Below are positions 6,838 to 51,651 of a stretch of 64,000 bases of DNA, one piece after another. This DNA is from Acidimicrobiia bacterium (GTDB taxonomy: Bacteria > Actinomycetota > Acidimicrobiia > Acidimicrobiales > Bin134), in assembly GCA_022822905.1 (NCBI GenBank), contig JAJDYE010000023.1, positions 30,521-94,520 of the forward strand, written 5' to 3'. The notes beneath the pieces were generated by a model. That model saw only the letters and a program-made list of their open reading frames with translations, searched no databases and was not told where the DNA came from. How positions within the stretch are numbered: position 1 is the first letter of the stretch; each line of letters opens with the position of its first letter. The translations under genes and the position numbers were made by a program.

Positions 6838-7200
6838 ATGGACCAAGCTGCCGTTGAGGCATTCGGAAACTATCTGCGCAGCCAGCGCAAGCTGGCCCAG
6901 CTCACTTTGCGGGAGCTGTCCGACCTGGCCCAGGTTTCCAACCCCTACCTCAGCCAGCTGGAGCGAGGCCTGCACCAGCCTTCGGTGCGGGTGATCAAGT
7001 CGCTGGCCACCGCGCTGAACTTGTCGGCCGAGACCCTGCTGGCCCAAGCCGCCGGCATCGATGCCGCCAACGGCGAGGGATTGGACGGCGTCTCCGACAC
7101 CGAAACCACCATCCGGGCCGACGCCAACCTCTCCGACGAGCAGAAGGCGGCCCTTCTCGAGGTGTACCGGAGCATGACCGGCGGCAGCCAAGCCTCCTGA
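6838..7200 (+). CDS. XRE-family helix-turn-helix transcriptional regulator
   Basis: HTH_3 signature LRSQRKLAQLTLRELSDLAQVSNPYLSQLERG. ATG at 6838, just after the hbd stop. Confidence 0.8.
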   Translation: MDQAAVEAFGNYLRSQRKLAQLTLRELSDLAQVSNPYLSQLERGLHQPSVRVIKSLATALNLSAETLLAQAAGIDAANGEGLDGVSDTETTIRADANLSDEQKAALLEVYRSMTGGSQAS

Positions 7201-7289
7201 ACCACGGCTTTTCCCACTTCAGAGGGGTTTTCTGAAGAATTCCTCCCCTTCCCGGCCCAAACTGTCACTCCCACCGGGATACTGGAAGC

Positions 7290-7460
7290 ATGAAGCAACA
7301 GCTCACCCTCTTGGAGGCACCGCCAGACTGGCGGATCGATGAGCGCACCAAGGAGATCGGGCGTCGGGGCCTGGCTCAAGCCCGAGCCGCCTTGCAACGC
7401 CACTCCCCCGCCATCCAATCCGCCACTTCCCCATCCGACGACGTTCCCCGTGCTGCGTGA
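7290..7460 (+). CDS. Small conserved-looking hypothetical protein (56 aa)
   Basis: ATG 7290, MKQQLTLLEAPPDWRIDERTKEIGRRGLAQARAAL... Its TGA overlaps the GTG of the nuclease gene (GTGA at 7457-7460). Below the ORF-track length cutoff. Confidence 0.45.
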   Translation: MKQQLTLLEAPPDWRIDERTKEIGRRGLAQARAALQRHSPAIQSATSPSDDVPRAA

Positions 7461-7999
7461 GGCGGACCCCAGCAGTTTGCGGCCTGCTGATATCCGCGCT
7501 CGTCGGCTGCTCGGGAAGTTCGGCCAGCCAGCTCGGCAACTCGCCTGAGCCGACCGCGGCGACAGTCGGGACTGCCGCCACGGTGAAGGAGGTGGTCGAC
7601 GGCGACACTGTGGTGGTCGAGGTGGCGGGCCGGACCGAGCGGGTGCGATTGATCGGCATCGACACCCCGGAGGTTGACGGGGGCTTCCTGCCAGCGGAGT
7701 GCTACGGCGACGAGGCCACCGCCTTCACCAGTGCGCTGCTGCCGATCGGCACCAATGTGCGCTTGACCCGCGATATCGAGGCCCGCGACCGCTATGAGCG
7801 GCTGCTGGCCTATGTGCATCGCTCCGACGACGGCCTGTTCGTCAACCTCGAAATCGCGGCCCAGGGATACGCCGAGGCTCTGATCATCGAGCCCAACACC
7901 ATCCACGCCGATGACTTCTACACCGCTGCGGCCCATGCCCGTGACCAGGGGATGGGCCTGTGGAGCGCCTGCGGCAGTGCCGACGTAGTGCTTGAGTAA
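7457..7999 (+). CDS. Secreted thermonuclease (SNase-family) lipoprotein
   Basis: Lipobox LISALVGC-SGS. SNase core VVDGDTVVVEVAGRTERVRLIGIDTPE...RDRYERLLAYV. Confidence 0.85.
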   Translation: MRRTPAVCGLLISALVGCSGSSASQLGNSPEPTAATVGTAATVKEVVDGDTVVVEVAGRTERVRLIGIDTPEVDGGFLPAECYGDEATAFTSALLPIGTNVRLTRDIEARDRYERLLAYVHRSDDGLFVNLEIAAQGYAEALIIEPNTIHADDFYTAAAHARDQGMGLWSACGSADVVLE

Positions 8000-8035
8000 T
8001 CCCCTTTTCGGTCAACGGGCGGTAGCTTTCGGGTA

Positions 8036-8869
8036 GTGAGCGAGCTAATGGAACGCCTGGGCGGTGACCCCCAGGGCCGAGCCTTGATTATCACCTGCGA
8101 CAACCTGGGGCAGTCCCACGCGGCCAACGCCGCCATCGCCGAGTGCCTGGACACCGGGGTGGCCACCGCGGCCAGCCTGATGGTGCCGTGTCCGTGGGCC
8201 AGGGATGCCGCCACCCGCTTCGCCACCACCCCGGTGGGGGTCGACCTCACCCTGAACGCCGAGTTCGACAACTACCGATGGGGTCCGATCACCCAGGCGC
8301 CATCTCTGTTGGACGGAGACGGGGGCTTCCCCCGCACCCCGGCCGACGCCTGGGAGCACAGCGATCTTGACGAGGTCTTCCGGGAGTGCCGGGCCCAGAT
8401 TGAGCGGGCCAGTCAGTGGGGCAGCGATCTGACCCACCTGAGCCCCCACTTGGACACGCTGTTGATGCGCCCCGAGTTCTTCGACGTCTATGTGGAGCTG
8501 GCCGCGGAGATGAAGCTCCCGATGCGCTTGGGCGGGAGCGACCAGGAGCGTCGGGCCGGATTCCCGTTCCGCCGTCTGGCCGCCGACGCGGGAGTGCTGG
8601 CCCCGGACCATCTGGTGCAGATCCGCGGCCGTCCCCCCCGCCGGACCCTGGAGGAAGCGGTGGAGAGCCTGGCCCCGGGGGTGACCGAGCTGGTGGTGTC
8701 TCCGGCCATCGACACTCCCGAGCTGCGGGAGCTGGATCCGGGCTGGCTCAGCCGGGTGGAGCAATACCTGCTGGTGGCCCACGATCTGTCGCTGCGCACC
8801 GCCATCGAGCGATCCGGCGCACGGATGCTGACCTACGCCGATCTGCGCGACGCCCAGCGCCAGGGCTGA
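8036..8869 (+). CDS. ChbG/HpnK (YdjC-like) family carbohydrate deacetylase
   Basis: N-terminal LIITCDNLGQSHAANAAIAECLDTGVATAASLMV matches the YdjC-like pattern. An alternative ATG start at 8048 is possible. Confidence 0.7.
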   Translation: MSELMERLGGDPQGRALIITCDNLGQSHAANAAIAECLDTGVATAASLMVPCPWARDAATRFATTPVGVDLTLNAEFDNYRWGPITQAPSLLDGDGGFPRTPADAWEHSDLDEVFRECRAQIERASQWGSDLTHLSPHLDTLLMRPEFFDVYVELAAEMKLPMRLGGSDQERRAGFPFRRLAADAGVLAPDHLVQIRGRPPRRTLEEAVESLAPGVTELVVSPAIDTPELRELDPGWLSRVEQYLLVAHDLSLRTAIERSGARMLTYADLRDAQRQG

Positions 8870-42708: not shown

Positions 42709-44292
42709 TCAGCGGTCGCCGATGGCGTAGAAGCCGCCGACGCGGTCGGCCACGTAGATGACTCCGTCCCACACCGCGGGGGTGGCCTCAATACAACCCC
42801 CCAGCGATATGCGCCATATCTCGGGGGGCTCGACCGCGGGGTCGGAAACGTCGAAGGCGTAGATGTTGCCAGCGCAGTCGCTTTGCATGAGCACGTCGTC
42901 GATCACCACCGGCGACGACCACACTGGGCCGCCCATCCGCTTGGACCACACGATCTCGCCGGTCTCGCGGCTCAGCCCGTACAAGAAACCCGCGTTGGTG
43001 GGCACATACACCATCTTGTCGGTCAGCGCCGGGGTGGCCCACACCCCGTCGATGTCGGCGTTGCGAAGGTCGGTGCCCCAAACGAGCGGCTCTTCGGCTG
43101 CGGGGTCGAGCTTGAGCATCTGGCCCAGCTCCTGGCTGCGGGTATTGCCCCGCTCGTACTCAACCCCCACATAGAGGAAGCCCTCGGCATCGGCCACCAC
43201 GGTGGCGTCCACGTCGTCGCCCGCCCAGTAGCGGAATACCCGCTCAGGGTCCTGTCCGTCGGCCACCCCTGAGATGTCCCAGCCCTGCACCAGGCCCCCG
43301 GAGTTGGCGAAATAGAGGGTGTTGCCCACCACGGTCATGCCGGTCTCGATGGAAATGTTGCCGTCGGTTACCACGCTGAGCAGTTCGTCGTCCCAGCCGG
43401 CGTTGGAGAACACCACTTCGGGGTCGATGGCCACCAGACCGTCGGGGCCGAAACTGCGGTTCAGCTTGGCGATGAAGAAGTGGCTGTTCTCCCCGCCTTG
43501 GAACAGGTGGTCGTTTAGCACCAGGCCCGCGCCGTCCCAATCGTCGTTCCACAGCACAGGCGGGAAGTCCTCGGCGTGTACCGACCAGAGCTCGACGGGC
43601 TCTTCCCGGTCGAAAGCGATGATCCGCAGATAGTTGTCCCGCGATCCGAAGTACACCAGGGGGTAGCCGTCGGGATCGACGGTCACCGACCCTTTGACCA
43701 GGTCGCCCACCACGAACTCGGGCATGATCTGCTCGCCGGTGGCGGCGTCGAGGAAGTGGACACCCGGGGTGTATGTGCCCGCAATCACCCAGGTGCGCTC
43801 GTCCCACTCGATCACCGCAGGCTGGCCGGTCCACCCCGCGCCGCACCACAAGGTGGTGCCCGCCTCCCAGGTGGTGAGCGAGCACAGGTCTCGCTCGGGG
43901 GTGCCGGTGAACCGCCACAGCACCTCCGGCGACTGCGGGGCCGGACCAGTGCCATAGAAGGTGCGGGTGGGATTGCCCCGGAAGGTGAGCAGTCCGGGCA
44001 TTCCGCTGACAGGCTTCCCGGCAGTGGCCGGGTCTACCCATCCCGGATACGGAGTGGGAGTGGGCTCGGGGGTGGGAGTCGGGTCCGGGACTTGGATGGG
44101 AGCGGGGGTTGAGATGGGCGCCGGGGCCGTCGTCGGCACCGATGTCGGCGTATCGGCCGGTGCCACAGGTATCGGGGCTGGAGACGTAGTCAGCTCAGGG
44201 TCGTCGACGTTGAAGTACTGCACCACGGCGACCACCGCCACGATCCCCACAGTGGCGGCAATCGCCGCGACCACGACCCACGATCTCCACAT
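42709..44292 (-). CDS. Membrane-anchored PQQ-like beta-propeller repeat protein
   Basis: N-terminal TM segment (WVVVAAIAATVGIVAVVAVV), a Pro/Thr-rich linker, then repeated W/G-rich propeller blades. ATG at 44292. Confidence 0.7.
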   Translation of the reverse strand: MWRSWVVVAAIAATVGIVAVVAVVQYFNVDDPELTTSPAPIPVAPADTPTSVPTTAPAPISTPAPIQVPDPTPTPEPTPTPYPGWVDPATAGKPVSGMPGLLTFRGNPTRTFYGTGPAPQSPEVLWRFTGTPERDLCSLTTWEAGTTLWCGAGWTGQPAVIEWDERTWVIAGTYTPGVHFLDAATGEQIMPEFVVGDLVKGSVTVDPDGYPLVYFGSRDNYLRIIAFDREEPVELWSVHAEDFPPVLWNDDWDGAGLVLNDHLFQGGENSHFFIAKLNRSFGPDGLVAIDPEVVFSNAGWDDELLSVVTDGNISIETGMTVVGNTLYFANSGGLVQGWDISGVADGQDPERVFRYWAGDDVDATVVADAEGFLYVGVEYERGNTRSQELGQMLKLDPAAEEPLVWGTDLRNADIDGVWATPALTDKMVYVPTNAGFLYGLSRETGEIVWSKRMGGPVWSSPVVIDDVLMQSDCAGNIYAFDVSDPAVEPPEIWRISLGGCIEATPAVWDGVIYVADRVGGFYAIGDR

Positions 44293-44316
44293 GCGCACTT
44301 GCACTACCGTAGAGCC

Positions 44317-44841
44317 ATGGCGATCGAATATTTGGACCCAAAGGCAGAACCGGCCGAGCCGGTGACTCTCTATGACCTGTCGGCGGGCAGTGGAACACTC
44401 ACCGTGGGGCTGTTGGCCAACGGATTCCCCGACTCGGTCCCATTCCTGGATGCCGTGGGCGAGAGCCTGCGCCGGGTTCGCCCCGACGTGGAGGTTCGGG
44501 CCTGGAACAAGGGCAACGCCTCCATGGTGGCCGACGACCAGCTCATGGGCGAGATCACCGACGACTGCGACGCGGTGGTGGCCGCCTACGGACATTGAGG
44601 AAGCTGCACTAGCGGCACCGTGCGTGACGCCATCAAAGCCGCCCGTCGGAATACTCCGGCGGTGGCGCTGGTGACCACCAAGTTCTCACCGCAGGGCGAC
44701 TTCGTGGCTCGTTCCGCGGGCATGCCCGATATTCCCCGGGTGATCCTCCCCCACCCGGTGGCCGGAACCGGGGAAAAGGCCATGCAGATGGTGGCCGACG
44801 ACATCGCCGACGAGGTGCTTCAGGCGCTAGGGGCCGGATGA
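44317..44841 (+). CDS. Putative selenoprotein with a GH-U-GSC motif (UGSC-type); in-frame TGA at 44596-44598 read as selenocysteine
   Basis: ORFs 44299-44598 and 44620-44841 share one frame and are separated only by TGA. Translation runs ...DAVVAAYGH-U-GSCTSGTVRDAIKAARRNTPAVALVTT...PHPVAG. The terminal TGA overlaps the next ATG. Confidence 0.65.
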
Positions 44842-45938
44842 GCCGACAGCTCACCGCTGCCACCGAAGAGGCCGCGCTCGAACAGCTCCACAACTCAGGC
44901 TGCACCGACGGACTGCCGGTGGTGATTCCCACCCCGGCCCGAGTGGAGCGGATGGTGCTGGCCTCGGGCCTCGACGCCGACGTGTCGCTGGGCCAACTCG
45001 GCCCCAACCTGGGCGAGGCAACCGTGGAGAAGGCGGCCATCGCCGCAGTGATGGCCGGCTGCCTGCCCGACTACTTCCCGGTGGTGGTGGCCGCGGTGCG
45101 GGCAGTGAGCGATCCCCGCCTGGACATGACCGAAGTACAGGCCACCACCCACAACCTGGGGCCGCTATTGATCGTGAACGGCCCCGCGGTGAGCGCCTGC
45201 GGCATCGCTTCGGGGTTCGGCGCGCTGGGCCCGGGCCACCGGGCCAACGCCAGCATCGGGCGGGCAGTGCGCCTGGCCATGATCAACATCGGCGGCGGCC
45301 GGCCCGGCACCTCCGACATGGCACTGCTCGGCCACCCCGGCAAGTTCACCTTTTGCCTGGGTGAAGACGAGGAGGCCAGTCCCTGGCCCCCGCTGCACAC
45401 CGCCCTGGGCTACGACATCGATCAAAGCACGGTGACGGTGGCCTGCACCGAGGGGCCGCATTCAGTGCTGTGCTTTCCCGACGACGATCCCGAGGTATAT
45501 GCCGACCACCTGATTAACGTGCTGGCCGCTTCGCTGTCGGGGTTGGGGGCCAACAACACCCACTTCGGCCGGGGCTCCCAGGTATTGGTACTCAACCCCG
45601 ACCACGCCGTCGCCCTAGCCGACGTGGGCTACGACCGGGCCACCATCGCCGAGGCGCTCCACGAGCGGGCCAAGCGATCCTGGTCGGAGCTGTCCACGGT
45701 GCGCTCTCGGGGCTCGGGCATCAATCGCCACCAGCGCAGCCAAGGCGACGATCCCGAGCTGGTTGTACACGCCCTGAGCAGCCCCGAAGCCCTGCTCATC
45801 CTGGTGGCCGGAGGCACCGGCCTTTACTCCACCATCATGCCCTCCTGGGGCGCCGGCCCCCACGGCAACAGCCACCTCACCGTAGAAATCGACCTCGACC
45901 AAACCTGTGAAGTGCCGTTGGTTATGCCGGCCCGCTAG
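44838..45938 (+). CDS. Conserved-looking hypothetical protein (366 aa) coupled to the selenoprotein gene
   Basis: ATGA overlap at 44838-44841. Clean coding ORF (HNSGCTDGLPVVIPTPARVERMV...). No family recognised. Confidence 0.7.
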   Translation: MSRQLTAATEEAALEQLHNSGCTDGLPVVIPTPARVERMVLASGLDADVSLGQLGPNLGEATVEKAAIAAVMAGCLPDYFPVVVAAVRAVSDPRLDMTEVQATTHNLGPLLIVNGPAVSACGIASGFGALGPGHRANASIGRAVRLAMINIGGGRPGTSDMALLGHPGKFTFCLGEDEEASPWPPLHTALGYDIDQSTVTVACTEGPHSVLCFPDDDPEVYADHLINVLAASLSGLGANNTHFGRGSQVLVLNPDHAVALADVGYDRATIAEALHERAKRSWSELSTVRSRGSGINRHQRSQGDDPELVVHALSSPEALLILVAGGTGLYSTIMPSWGAGPHGNSHLTVEIDLDQTCEVPLVMPAR

Positions 45939-47307: not shown

Positions 47308-49761
47308 TTGACCACGTTCTTCGAATCCGTGGGAAAGCTGGCTGTAGTGTCGCGGATCGTGTCTTCGAATGAACTGCCGCTGAGCGGCCTGCGGGTCATC
47401 GACATGGCCGACGTCAAGGGCGAGTTGGCCGGTCGGGTTCTGGCCGACTTCGGCGCCGACGTGATCCGGGTGGAGCCGCCCAGCGGGGCCGAGTCCCGGC
47501 GCGTGCCTCCATTCGCCCCCGACGGCGAGACCAGCCTGTACTTCGCCTTCCGCAACTTCAACAAGCGGGGCATCACCGTGGACGTGACCACCGCCGATGG
47601 CCAGGCCCAGCTGCGAGAGCTGCTGGCCAGCGCCGATGTGTGGATTGAATCCACCAAACCGGGGACTATGGCCCCCTACGGGCTCGATCCCCGGGAGGTT
47701 TCCGCCGAGTTCGAGCACCTGCTGGTGCTCTCGATCACCGACTTCGGCCAAGAGGGGCCGTATGCCCAGTTCGAGGCCACCGACGAGGTGATCCAAGCCA
47801 TGAGCGGGCACCTGGCCGCCTCGGGCATCCCCGAGAAGCCGCCGCTGCTCATCCCCGGGGCGATCGCATACGACACCGCCGGCGTGGTCGGCGCGCTGGC
47901 TGTGGCCATCGGGCTTGTGGCCAAACAGCGCACCGGGCGGGGCCAGCACCTGGACTTCTCGGTGCTGGAGGCGGCCATCCACCTCAACACCTGGCAGCTG
48001 GCCAACATGCAGCCCACCCTGGACGCAGGAATGGACCCTCCCATCGTCCGGTCGGGCACCACCGTGGTGTACCCGCTGTTCGAGACGGCCGACGGATACA
48101 TCACCATGGTGGTTCTCAGCCCCCGACAATGGTTTTCCCTATGGGAGTGGATGGGTCGCCCCGAGGCATTCGCCGACGAGATGTGGAGCCAGACCATCAC
48201 CCGGATCATGAACGGCGACGTGTTGAACCCGGTGATCGCCGAGCACTTCGCCCCCATGATGATGGAGGAAGCCGCCGCCGAGGCCCAGCGCCGGGGCGTG
48301 GTGGTCACCCCGATGCTCAAGCCGTCCGACATCCTGGTGAACGAGCACTACGTGTCCCGGTCCACGTTCGTGCCGATGGAACTGGCCCCTGGCGTAGAGG
48401 CGGCAACCGCCTCGGGATTCATGGAAATCAACCGGCAGCGCCAGGGGTTCCGCTTCGGTTCCCCGGCTCTGGGTGAGCACAACGCCGAAGTGGCCGCGGA
48501 GGCGGCCGCCGCCGAGCCCGCAGGTCCAGTGCCAGACGCCGGCGAGACGGCCCAACCGCTGGCCGGACTGCGGGTGCTGGACTTCGGCCACGGCGGTGTG
48601 GGCGTGGAGGGGGGTCGGATGCTGGCCGAGTACGGCGCCGACGTCATCAAGATCGAAACCCGCACCTATCCCGACTTCATGCGGCTGGTCATCGGTACCG
48701 AGATGACGGCGTCGTTCGCCTCGTCGAGCCGCACCAAGCGCAGCTTCGGGGTCAACTCCAAGATCCCCGAGGGGTTGGCCGTGCTGAAGGAACTGGTGAA
48801 GACGGCCGACATCGTGATCGAGAACAACTCCACCGGCACCATGGACGCCATGGGGGTGGGCTACGAGACGCTCAAGGAGCTCAATCCCGGCGTGTGCATG
48901 GCCAGCAGCCAGCTCATGGGCTCCACCGGGGCCTATGCCGACTGGATCGGCTACGGACCCACCATCCAGACAGTGGGAGGCATCAAGTACCTGTGGAACT
49001 TCACCGACGGCGACCCGCCGCCGGGGTCAAACGCCATCCACCCCGACCACTTGGCCGGACGGCTGTGCGCCCTGGGCGCGCTGGTCGGCCTGTTGAGCCG
49101 AGACCGCCGGGACGGCGATGGGGCCCAGGCCGAGATCAGCCAGGCCGAGGCATTGGTCAACACGCTGGGCGATCTGTTCATGGCCGAGTCGCTCAGCCCC
49201 GGCTCGGTGCAGCCCGTGGGCAACGACTCAGACCAAGGCGCCCCCTGGGGGGTGTTCCAGTGCGCCGGCGACCAGCAGTGGAGCGTGGTGTGCGTGCGCC
49301 ACGACGCCGACTGGGCCGCGCTCAAACAGGCCATGGGCAACCCGGCCTGGGCCGATCACCCGGCCTACGGAACCGCTGAGGGCCGTTTGGCCGCCCGGGA
49401 AGCGGTCAACGCCGGGGTAGCCGAGTGGACCGCCAACCTCTCACCGCTGGAGGTCCAGGAGGCGTCTCAGGCCGTCGGCGTCCCCGGCTCAGCCATGCTC
49501 ACCGCCCTCGACCACATGACCGATCCCCAACTCACCCAGCGAGGCTTCCCGCTAGAGGTCTTCCAACCCGGCGCCGGCAACCTGGTGCTGGAAGGCCCCT
49601 GCTTCTACGGCAGCGAGATGCCCGCCCCCCCAGTCCACGCCGCCCCCCTGCTCGGCGAGCACACCCGCCAAATCTGCATCGAAGAGCTCAACATGGACGC
49701 CGCCGAAGTCGAACGCCTCGTCGAAATGGGCGCCCTAGAAGTCCCCCTCCCCGAGGACTGA
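47308..49761 (+). CDS. Double-domain family III CoA-transferase (paralogue of 28913-31336)
   Basis: LSGLRVIDMADVKGELAGRVLADFGADVIRVEPP and LAGLRVLDFGHGGVGVEGGRMLAEYGADVIKIE. The real start may be GTG 47359. Confidence 0.8.
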   Translation: MTTFFESVGKLAVVSRIVSSNELPLSGLRVIDMADVKGELAGRVLADFGADVIRVEPPSGAESRRVPPFAPDGETSLYFAFRNFNKRGITVDVTTADGQAQLRELLASADVWIESTKPGTMAPYGLDPREVSAEFEHLLVLSITDFGQEGPYAQFEATDEVIQAMSGHLAASGIPEKPPLLIPGAIAYDTAGVVGALAVAIGLVAKQRTGRGQHLDFSVLEAAIHLNTWQLANMQPTLDAGMDPPIVRSGTTVVYPLFETADGYITMVVLSPRQWFSLWEWMGRPEAFADEMWSQTITRIMNGDVLNPVIAEHFAPMMMEEAAAEAQRRGVVVTPMLKPSDILVNEHYVSRSTFVPMELAPGVEAATASGFMEINRQRQGFRFGSPALGEHNAEVAAEAAAAEPAGPVPDAGETAQPLAGLRVLDFGHGGVGVEGGRMLAEYGADVIKIETRTYPDFMRLVIGTEMTASFASSSRTKRSFGVNSKIPEGLAVLKELVKTADIVIENNSTGTMDAMGVGYETLKELNPGVCMASSQLMGSTGAYADWIGYGPTIQTVGGIKYLWNFTDGDPPPGSNAIHPDHLAGRLCALGALVGLLSRDRRDGDGAQAEISQAEALVNTLGDLFMAESLSPGSVQPVGNDSDQGAPWGVFQCAGDQQWSVVCVRHDADWAALKQAMGNPAWADHPAYGTAEGRLAAREAVNAGVAEWTANLSPLEVQEASQAVGVPGSAMLTALDHMTDPQLTQRGFPLEVFQPGAGNLVLEGPCFYGSEMPAPPVHAAPLLGEHTRQICIEELNMDAAEVERLVEMGALEVPLPED

Positions 49762-50667: not shown

Positions 50668-51651
50668 ATGACACCCCGATACCGAAACCCACAAGCCGAG
50701 GCCGATGCCATGGTGGGCGACGGTCTGATTGCCAGAGTGCTGGAGCCGTCACCGCCTGCCGTGGTCACCGGTCCCTGGTTCGCCGACGACCCCGCCTCGG
50801 TGGGCGAAACCGATCAAGCGACTGCCAGGATGGTGACTCCCACCAGTGCGGGCGATCTCCGCTGGGCCGATCTGGCCGCAGCGGACGAGACCGTGGCCGA
50901 ATTCTGCGGGCCCCGATGGCTGGCCAACTACCAGCCGCTGGTGAGGGTGCCCGATCACTATCCGGTGCGACGCGACGACCTTCACCGTTTGGCCTACGGC
51001 GTGGTGTCCAACACCCGCAAGGCGGCCAACGGGAAGTTCGGCCTGCGCTGGACTCTTGGCGGGTTCGGCACCCCGTTCTTCGGTGACGACACCCAGGTAC
51101 GGGTGGAAGGGCGCATGTTGGTGAGGCAGCACAGGGACAAGGTGGAGGCTGAGACGATTACCACGCTGGCCGCAGCCGCCGACTTTCTAGGCGTAGAGGC
51201 GACCAGCGATCAGGCCGAGCACGACACCGTGGCGCTGGGCGACTTGGATCGCCCGCTGACGGTGGACGAGGAGCTGGTGGCGTTCACCAGCCAGTGGTTC
51301 GGGATGGCCACCGCGGCGCTGGAGGAGCTGCGCTGCACTCCCGGAGCTCCCGATCCCAGCCGGGTGCAGCTGTGGCCTGGCCACTTCGACGTGGCAGTGG
51401 AGATCGGCAATGCCGAGGCTGAGCCGGCGACCCGGGCCACCTACGGGGCATCGCCCGGCGACCCCGCTCATCCTGAGCCCTACCTGTATGTGGGGCCATG
51501 GGGACCGGTGGATCCCGGAGATCCATTCTGGAACGACACTGCTTTCACTGGGGCGTCGCTGCCCTACGTGGCAATAGAGGGCGACCCCAATCCCTGCGGC
51601 GTGGCCCTGGGCTTCTATCGACAGGCCTTCAGTCGGCTGATCGGCAGCTAG
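50668..51651 (+). CDS. Hypothetical protein (327 aa)
   Basis: Coding-like ORF with no motif I can name. Confidence 0.55.
   Translation: MTPRYRNPQAEADAMVGDGLIARVLEPSPPAVVTGPWFADDPASVGETDQATARMVTPTSAGDLRWADLAAADETVAEFCGPRWLANYQPLVRVPDHYPVRRDDLHRLAYGVVSNTRKAANGKFGLRWTLGGFGTPFFGDDTQVRVEGRMLVRQHRDKVEAETITTLAAAADFLGVEATSDQAEHDTVALGDLDRPLTVDEELVAFTSQWFGMATAALEELRCTPGAPDPSRVQLWPGHFDVAVEIGNAEAEPATRATYGASPGDPAHPEPYLYVGPWGPVDPGDPFWNDTAFTGASLPYVAIEGDPNPCGVALGFYRQAFSRLIGS

Follow-up and report, generated by a model that had tools for sequence, protein, structure and literature searches.

In the Grd (glycine/sarcosine/betaine) and Prd (D-proline) reductases, the closest described systems to the one treated here, a selenoprotein is combined with a larger, substrate-specific subunit, and trxB-trxA often lies in the same operon. 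UGSC, a selenoprotein family listed since 2007-2008, is among the most abundant in ocean metagenomes. A 2026 review places it among the selenoproteins with largely uncharacterised functions (PMC13188914). The present analysis follows a UGSC-family gene and the gene directly downstream of it, here called P, in a stretch of 64,000 nucleotides (nts) from an Acidimicrobiia bacterium (contig JAJDYE010000023.1), the whole of which is referred to below as the window. UGSC proves to be almost never without its P partner, and the selenoprotein, hitherto an orphan, can thereby be defined as part of an enzyme system. The pairing is shared by a widespread family and is not peculiar to the window. Fusions and operons tie P in turn to the thioredoxin system, and UGSC/P is best read as a thioredoxin-linked selenoprotein reductase complex, with a substantial chance of being a new enzyme class.

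Pairing, fusion and thioredoxin-system links

The first-pass annotation of the window, made from the sequence alone, had proposed to examine whether the partner is conserved next to UGSC elsewhere. It is so in all of the 80 genome loci fetched: a UGSC gene lies directly beside P in every one, upstream on the same strand in 79 and divergent in a single locus (L056), which likewise encodes the selenocysteine (Sec) type of UGSC. Start and stop codons overlap by 4 nts in 56 of the 79 same-strand loci, and the others show an overlap of 8-10 nts or a gap of 1-99 nts. Where second UGSC paralogues occur in the flanks (L033, L057, L068, L090, L091), each has an adjacent P paralogue of its own. UGSC is also present in 10/10 metagenomic contexts drawn from other subfamilies, among them stand-alone P genes of Chloroflexi/SAR202, in either gene order, and genes in which P is joined to a thioredoxin (Trx), to a thioredoxin reductase (TrxR) or to a second P. 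A tblastn search of plasmids and chromids yielded 24 records, 13 of which were inspected by annotation, by a tblastn of our own and against Pfam; in 12/13 of these plasmid contexts, from cultured bacteria and haloarchaea, UGSC is adjacent or fused to P.

The haloarchaeal UGSC proteins are of the cysteine (Cys) type, with GDCGSC in place of the Sec motif, and the haloarchaeon Natrinema zhouii retains the 4-nt overlap between UGSC and P. In Halorientalis and Halalkalicoccus, two P paralogues flank one Cys-type UGSC in P-UGSC-P' triads. Triads of this kind lie on haloarchaeal megaplasmids at L105 3337-5957 and L106 5001-7634. Such triads, together with P-P tandems of ~715 amino acids (aa; e.g., P0130), suggest that P is present twice in some complexes. 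Overall, the adjacency of P and UGSC spans Actinomycetota, Pseudomonadota, Chloroflexota, Myxococcota, Spirochaetota, Verrucomicrobiota and the haloarchaea; the arrangement is far beyond chance, and the pairing is close to obligate.

Fusion of the two proteins is frequent. Among the 150 best P-family representatives, on which the fusion census is based, 95 are stand-alone P proteins and 42 are UGSC-P or P-UGSC fusions. The latter comprise 16 full UGSC-P fusions of the Cys type, 22 in which the C-terminal half of UGSC precedes P in a gene call that starts past the Sec TGA, and 4 in which P is followed by the N-terminal half of UGSC in a gene call that ends at the Sec TGA. Of the remainder, 6 are P-P tandems and 7 are fragments or partial duplicates. 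Fusion in both orders is a textbook sign of coupling, physical as well as functional. Together with the adjacency in many phyla, these fusions strongly support the original suggestion that the two genes are co-expressed and form a functional pair.

A further set of architectures came from a search seeded with a distant member of a P tandem, and it is here that the thioredoxin system enters. An N-terminal Trx-like domain, bearing CPTC or CETC, is fused to P in four proteins (P0407, P0410, P0412, P0418), and an AhpC/TSA-like domain in three (P0209, P0402, P0417). In P0424, a complete TrxR-like flavoprotein of the low-molecular-mass (low-Mr) kind, bearing CATC, is fused to P. A Sec-type UGSC gene begins 10 bp after this TrxR-P gene, and Sec-type UGSC genes also follow the Trx-P genes P0412 and P0418. 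Because UGSC is still found downstream of these Trx-P and TrxR-P genes, the extra domains supplement UGSC and do not replace it.

The same partnership recurs at the level of operons in cultured organisms. The order is trxB-trxA-P-UGSC in Arthrobacter sp. ERGS1:01, LysR followed by P-UGSC-trxB in Roseovarius sp. THAF8, trxB-TTT binding protein-SDR-P-UGSC in Variovorax sp. SRS16, and UGSC-P-TrxR-like oxidoreductase in Haloterrigena turkmenica. The Arthrobacter UGSC (L098 7988-8800) is extended at its C terminus by a NifU-like domain (Pfam PF01106, 4.3e-06). Through such recurrent fusions and shared operons, the P family is genetically linked to TrxR/Trx modules. This agrees with the initial view that a Sec-dependent, reductase-type two-component enzyme is plausible, to which the Trx, AhpC and TrxR fusions and the trxB/trxA operons lend independent support at the level of sequence. 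The window itself is without this linkage, and no trxB gene lies within 6 kb of the pair in 13/13 of its close relatives; in its subfamily the pair stands on its own as a module of two genes, which probably draws on the thioredoxin system of the housekeeping kind.

Sequence and structure models of UGSC and P

The features of the locus are collected in Table 1. The product of the upstream gene matches the Pfam family PF24696 'UGSC' at 7.3e-42 (143.8 bits, cut-off 25) and the NCBIfam family NF041046 'UGSC family (seleno)protein' at 6.7e-30 (104 bits, under the equivalog cut-off of 125). These profile matches, a U-G-S-C motif with TGA-encoded Sec and a selenocysteine insertion sequence (SECIS)-like element together make the gene a member of the UGSC family. 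Its ATG is the most likely start, with a TTG at 44299 as the alternative, and homologue alignments begin at MAIEY. As first noted from the sequence, the P gene starts within the UGSC stop codon: the ATG at 44838-44840 overlaps the TGA at 44839-44841 in an ATGA, and a Shine-Dalgarno-like AGGGG stands before it at 44829-44833.

Table 1. The UGSC/P locus and genes near it, in positions of the window
Feature	Position	Strand	Description	Basis
UGSC-family selenoprotein gene	44317..44841	+	174 aa with Sec; ATG 44317; stop TGA 44839-44841	Translation; Pfam and NCBIfam profiles
In-frame TGA read as selenocysteine (GH-U-GSC)	44596..44598	+		Read-through translation; homologous TGA in other loci
SECIS-like hairpin	44612..44630	+	16-34 nt past the T of the TGA	Comparative data
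Translational-coupling junction	44829..44841	+	AGGGG (Shine-Dalgarno-like), 4-nt spacer, ATGA	
Partner gene P	44838..45938	+	366 aa; ATG start	Open reading frame (ORF) as given in the first-pass annotation
Beta-propeller gene	42709-44262	-	PQQ/BamB-like; N-terminal membrane anchor; Pro/Thr-rich linker; divergent from the UGSC gene	
Double CoA-transferase gene	47308-49761	+	817 aa; two full family III CoA-transferase (CaiB/BaiF) domains in a single chain	
ORF	50668-51651	+	327 aa; no Pfam match	

Read through the TGA at 44596-44598, the UGSC product contains the stretch AAYGH-U-GSCTSGTVRD. A TGA stands at the homologous Sec position in 77/77 assessable genome loci, a strict retention of Sec in the window's subfamily, and by this comparison of sequences the Sec codon appears to be real. 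The hairpin that follows it is composed of two 3-bp stems with single unpaired bases between them and an apical loop CGUGC. Its core consists of 15 nts (+18 to +32, GGCACCGTGCGTGAC, 44614-44628) that are the same in all of 74 unique sequences, drawn from several phyla. These 15 nts include five synonymous third positions, while the third positions flanking them vary freely. Across 67 sequences, 99% of the cells in the alignment of the hairpin are paired, and 2/6 pairs show compensatory changes. The region downstream of the TGA, folded as a single sequence, gives a structure no more stable than shuffled controls (z = -0.02), and Rfam holds no family or model for the hairpin. By the comparative data, the hairpin agrees with the general picture of bacterial SECIS elements.

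P is the less familiar of the two proteins. The statement that it matches no nameable family has stood up to searches of Pfam, NCBIfam and the PDB. The window protein has no Pfam match at E<=1 and, in NCBIfam, only noise at ~13 bits. When 79 diverse relatives were compared with Pfam at E<=5, only UGSC itself appeared, in the fused forms, and no other family recurred. No sequence relative was found in the PDB by phmmer or by profile search; the sole profile match there, the TetR regulator 3him, extends over 90 residues at E 2e-4 and was judged spurious. The family is nevertheless large. A word-indexed search brought up over 6,800 homologues, each unnamed or called 'hypothetical protein', and an exhaustive profile search gave 5,833 clusters (50% identity) at E<=1e-3 and 1,685 at E<=1e-30. 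Its members are ~340-370 residues long.

The key motifs of P are C22-TDGLPV, AVMAG-C75, QATTH105, GPGHRANASIGR142, D160, GHPGK169 and C173xxE176, and the window protein carries the entire signature of the family, namely (T/S)DGLPV, AVMAGC, TTH, GPGxRAN..IGRA, D160, GxPGK and E176. The window comes from a relative of Candidatus Poriferisocius, a lineage of sponge-associated Acidimicrobiia. Protein identity is 85-98% for the thirteen loci L001-L013 and ~57-62% within the window's subfamily across Acidimicrobiia, Gammaproteobacteria, Myxococcota, Spirochaetales and Verrucomicrobiota. This subfamily is unusually conserved, with 54 columns invariant in 112 sequences. Identity in the wider family is ~28-52%, and the invariant or near-invariant positions there are D24-G-L-P27, P31, T32, C75 (in AVMAGC), T104, G115-P116, G131, G133, N137, G141, R142, N150, G152-G153, D160, G165, P167, E176 and P182-W183. 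P is moreover the better conserved partner, at 58.2% versus 54.0% identity, and exceeds UGSC in 61/63 loci. Cysteine-rich segments had been singled out early as conserved-looking. The impression was right for Cys75 (C75), near-invariant throughout the family and the only cysteine kept at 90% or more in the wider family, and wrong for the rest, which are not general: C173 is frequent though not strict, whereas C22, C121 and C357 are specific to the subfamily, the position of C22 being W, L or Y in relatives beyond the close subfamily. Judged from its conservation above that of UGSC, its many invariant polar and Gly-rich motifs and its repeated fusion to redox modules, P looks like an enzyme in its behaviour.

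Structure prediction with a Foldseek search, the other check proposed at the outset, gave a confident model of P and no convincing fold match in the PDB. The AlphaFold2 model of P has a predicted local distance difference test (pLDDT) score of 89.1 and a predicted template-modelling score (pTM) of 0.90. In this model of P alone, the strongly conserved loop D160-K169 has a disordered stretch at residues 161-165 (pLDDT <50). P0156, a natural UGSC-P fusion of the Cys type, gives a model with a pLDDT of 93.9, a pTM of 0.92 and no segment below 50, which suggests that the D160-K169 loop may become ordered against the UGSC domain in the fusion. Foldseek searches of both models against the PDB returned, for P, weak matches only. 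The best is the alpha subunit of class I fumarate hydratase (7xky_A, E 7.5e-4; probability 0.75-0.80 for the top matches; TM 0.25-0.30; root-mean-square deviation ~16 A), and the lesser ones are Toblerone-fold cyclic amide hydrolases, PurM-like proteins, RidA and CyuA. Kinship with class I fumarases was rejected at an hhalign probability of 0.06% against the fumarases of the fetched loci. As an Fe-S hydro-lyase, P would be missing the three conserved cluster-binding cysteines, and the fumarase match is put down to chance or to resemblance of a sub-domain. Self-processing at the G-C/T of P, in the manner of an Ntn-hydrolase or a pyruvoyl enzyme, is considered unlikely: the residue is mostly Thr, it is coil in the model, and the residue before it is unconserved.

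The search with the fusion model matched only its UGSC domain, the P part again being without a match. All matches are flavodoxin-like, to the three-layer folds of flavodoxin, WrbA, MsuE and the B12-binding domain of MetH, and the C/U-x-x-C (residues 93-96 of P0156) sits between the strand at 86-92 and the helix at 95-110 of the model. A thioredoxin fold had been proposed for UGSC in 2008 (PMC2398784). The predicted fold is instead flavodoxin-like.

A proposed reductase and its rivals

On this combined evidence, P is proposed to be the substrate-binding and catalytic subunit, and UGSC the redox subunit bearing the UxxC motif, of a reductase for which the thioredoxin system and a selenol or thiol are required; we put the probability of this reading at roughly 60%. 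The enzyme would be a two-subunit cytoplasmic oxidoreductase, with P as the larger and UGSC as the small subunit. We infer that its reaction is a reduction. Thioredoxin reductase would draw electrons from NAD(P)H and pass them on to thioredoxin or a Trx-like CxxC domain; the selenol/thiol pair of UGSC would receive them next and deliver them to a substrate bound by P rather than by UGSC. Cys75 of P may serve as a resolving or relay cysteine. The polar residues D24, T32, T104, N137, R142, D160 and E176, together with the glycine-rich loops, could form a site for a small anionic substrate. More tentative, and held at somewhat less than even odds, is the broader proposal that UGSC and P constitute an unrecognised, Trx-fed selenoenzyme class whose catalytic subunit has no fold relative among solved structures and which would reduce small carboxylate or CoA-linked metabolites.

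Several points weigh against this proposal. UGSC is listed as a protein of unknown function (PMC1976440, PMC13188914). The P gene on a Haladaptatus halobius plasmid (L107) has no UGSC within 5 kb, the sole exception to the pairing, and the window's subfamily has no conserved third gene around the pair. At least one divergent subgroup of P (P0425, P0433) has Gly in place of Cys75, and this cysteine therefore cannot be essential in all members. As for the exceptional Haladaptatus P gene, it sits in the usual haloarchaeal cluster of DUF6282, LLM oxidoreductase, CoA transferase, CoA ester lyase and TRAP binding protein.

Four other explanations were weighed, and each fits fewer of the observations than the reductase model does. 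P might be a non-reductive enzyme, such as a hydrolase, lyase or isomerase, with an active-site cysteine that UGSC and the thioredoxin system keep reduced or switch on. We regard this as unlikely, if well worth considering. It would sit well with a single near-invariant cysteine in P (C75), with catabolic operons whose CoA-transferases, CoA-ester lyases, hydratases and carboxylate transporters suit a non-redox step, and with the weak fold matches of P, which are to hydro-lyases and hydrolases. An operon-borne trxB and a whole TrxR domain on P, however, imply that reductant is used stoichiometrically. Strict retention of Sec (77/77) would be unusual for a mere maintenance thiol, and 1:1 fusion in both orders suits a catalytic heterodimer.

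With 79 diverse members free of any Pfam match at E<=5 other than to fused UGSC, P would have to be very divergent to belong to a family already described, such as GrdE/PrdA or the Fe-S hydro-lyases, and the odds of this seem poor. What recommends the idea is the Grd/Prd-like layout, in which a UxxC selenoprotein, a larger partner and trxB/trxA share an operon, along with the class I fumarate hydratases at the top of the Foldseek matches. Against those fumarases stand the hhalign value of 0.06%, a TM of only 0.25-0.30 and the three conserved cluster-binding cysteines that P is without; against the Grd/Prd subunits stands the candidate pyruvoyl-precursor position, which is Thr or Ser and not Cys.

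It is more doubtful still that the pair acts on sulfur or selenium themselves, by carrying persulfide or selenide or by recycling selenium compounds. Neighbours of the right kind do occur: selA-selB lies directly beside the pair in 4/67 genome loci, plus L081-L083; selB is nearby in Paracoccus; and DsrE, TusA and a cysteine desulfurase are near the pair in Paracoccus ferrooxidans. The NifU-like domain of the Arthrobacter UGSC and the weak Foldseek matches of P to PurM-like proteins, including SelD and HypE, point the same way. Yet the PurM-like matches have E values of 0.04-0.9 and TM values of 0.10-0.15, and adjacency of sel genes is rare and just as well accounted for if the Sec machinery was transferred along with the main client that it serves. 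Moreover, Cys-type pairs are common in haloarchaea and others in which neither Sec-type UGSC nor sel genes are seen.

There is, finally, a slight chance that the pair serves in antioxidant defence by reducing peroxides or organic hydroperoxides, the peroxidatic selenoprotein being UGSC and P an accessory protein, as the AhpC/TSA-like and Trx-like domains fused to P, the thiol-oxidoreductase-like nature of most marine selenoproteins (PMC2398784) and the lack of pathway genes around the module in the window's subfamily might suggest, but peroxidases need no 340-residue partner with dozens of invariant polar and Gly residues, P is more conserved than UGSC, and other subfamilies lie in LysR-controlled catabolic operons with transporters.

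Genomic context and comparison with known systems

In the window, the neighbours of the pair are genes for a DUF6159 membrane protein, a SnoaL-like protein, the double CoA-transferase III, an SDR and the PQQ-like beta-propeller. The first-pass annotation had accordingly set the pair among CoA-transferase, NTF2 and SDR genes. This is true of the window; it does not extend to its subfamily. CoA-transferase III lies within 6 kb of the pair in 13/13 Poriferisocius-like loci versus 6/67 other genomes, and the CoA-transferase, SnoaL and SDR genes were set aside as functional context, being conserved only among these close relatives. The 817-aa double CoA-transferase, judged by its conservation, adjoins the pair only in Poriferisocius-like genomes. 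Among 126 immediate neighbours at 65 non-redundant loci of this subfamily, the commonest Pfam family is SDR, seen 9 times; ORF clustering, used to look for a third gene, was confounded by spurious overlapping ORFs of high-GC DNA. The mechanical ORF of the beta-propeller likewise runs to 44595, into the UGSC gene, an overlap that is probably a high-GC artefact. Scans of the UGSC/P locus with Rfam and for promoters and terminators found none, and the 64-kb window contains no tRNA genes.

Other subfamilies offer a richer context. CoA-transferase III recurs near P/UGSC in distant haloarchaeal and Chloroflexi subfamilies; CaiB-type transferases flank UGSC/P in haloarchaea, in Roseovarius and in a Chloroflexi metagenome-assembled genome (L090), the last with four in tandem. 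The clusters of these other subfamilies contain TTT, TRAP or ABC binding proteins, CaiB-type CoA-transferases, CoA-ester or HMG-CoA lyases, hydratases, LLM flavin oxidoreductases and DUF6282, and from this gene content they are apparently catabolic and substrate-inducible. Such neighbours hint at small carboxylates or CoA esters as substrates, although their families are abundant in these genomes.

Individual loci add leads of their own. On the Vibrio europaeus plasmid pVEu (L095 4001-9288), a UGSC-P fusion lies between aconitase X/DUF126 and enolase-family genes and is followed by AzlCD permease genes, and this locus is a possible lead to the substrate. Genes annotated as 'phosphosulfolactate synthase' are found near the module in Natrinema zhouii (L096 3811-4278) and Arthrobacter (L098 4659-5447), and genes of the isocitrate lyase/PEP mutase family in Natrinema and Acidovorax; these neighbours could hint at sulfonate- or phosphonate-type substrates, or be coincidence. 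In three gammaproteobacterial loci (L042, L065, L071, at ~7100-8660), a class I (Fe-S) fumarate hydratase gene comes directly after the pair, with a TrxB-like gene no more than 6 kb away. In several Proteobacteria, selA and selB adjoin UGSC-P (L081 9123-13255; L023, L028, L037, L045), sometimes preceded by a small methyltransferase gene. The sel genes and the pair look like a portable 'selenoprotein plus machinery' island, and their adjacency agrees with joint inheritance of the Sec machinery and one of its major clients.

With respect to described families, the upstream gene is a member of UGSC (PF24696, NF041046), and P is its constant neighbour, outside the family and without a model of its own. 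A 'UGSC/Unknown_1' fusion was reported from Global Ocean Sampling reads by Zhang and Gladyshev 2008 (PMC2398784, Fig. S1A), 'Unknown_1' being a conserved, Cys-containing domain fused to UGSC in aquatic organisms. Very probably this is the P domain. That paper gave the fusion only, and not the obligate operon pairing, the size of the family or the links to the thioredoxin system. In the literature searched, no account was found of the near-universal pairing, of how large and how little annotated the P family is, of a flavodoxin-like fold for UGSC or of links to the thioredoxin system. For annotation, a new P family model and a linked name are justified for thousands of 'hypothetical proteins'. 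Suitable hosts for testing are Paracoccus versutus and Acidovorax sp. T1 for the Sec type and, for the Cys type with trxB in the operon, the Arthrobacter, Roseovarius and Variovorax strains named above; several haloarchaea are suitable too. If the pair is indeed a new selenoenzyme class, an abundant ocean selenoprotein family would mark a widespread and hitherto unrecognised metabolic step, a reduction carried out by aerobic marine, freshwater, soil and hypersaline microbes and not yet assigned to any enzyme.

Among known enzymes, the best Foldseek match of P, the alpha subunit of class I fumarate hydratase, differs from it in having the three-cysteine cluster site. The Trx-dependent reductases, such as MsrA/B, ArsC, PAPS reductase and peroxiredoxin/AhpF, resemble the proposed system in their Cys/Sec relay, in being fed by Trx/TrxR and in occurring in Sec and Cys forms. 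Unlike P, however, they have other sequences and folds and are single-subunit enzymes with no P-like partner. The comparison with Grd/Prd is closer and also cuts both ways. PrdB is listed with a UxxC motif (PMC2398784). In contrast to Grd/Prd, neither P nor any of its 79 relatives has a GRDB or Gly_reductase match in a Pfam profile search, and no kinship in sequence can be detected; UGSC/P is not accompanied by GrdA-, GrdC- or GrdD-like genes, and P bears no sign of a pyruvoyl group. The hosts of UGSC/P, again unlike those of Grd/Prd, are mainly aerobic heterotrophs and haloarchaea. Like GrdB/GrdE and PrdB/PrdA, on the other hand, UGSC/P joins a UxxC selenoprotein to a larger subunit and is linked to TrxR/Trx, and, as in Grd/Prd, its paralogous modules have expanded beside differing transporters, which suggests that they act on different substrates.

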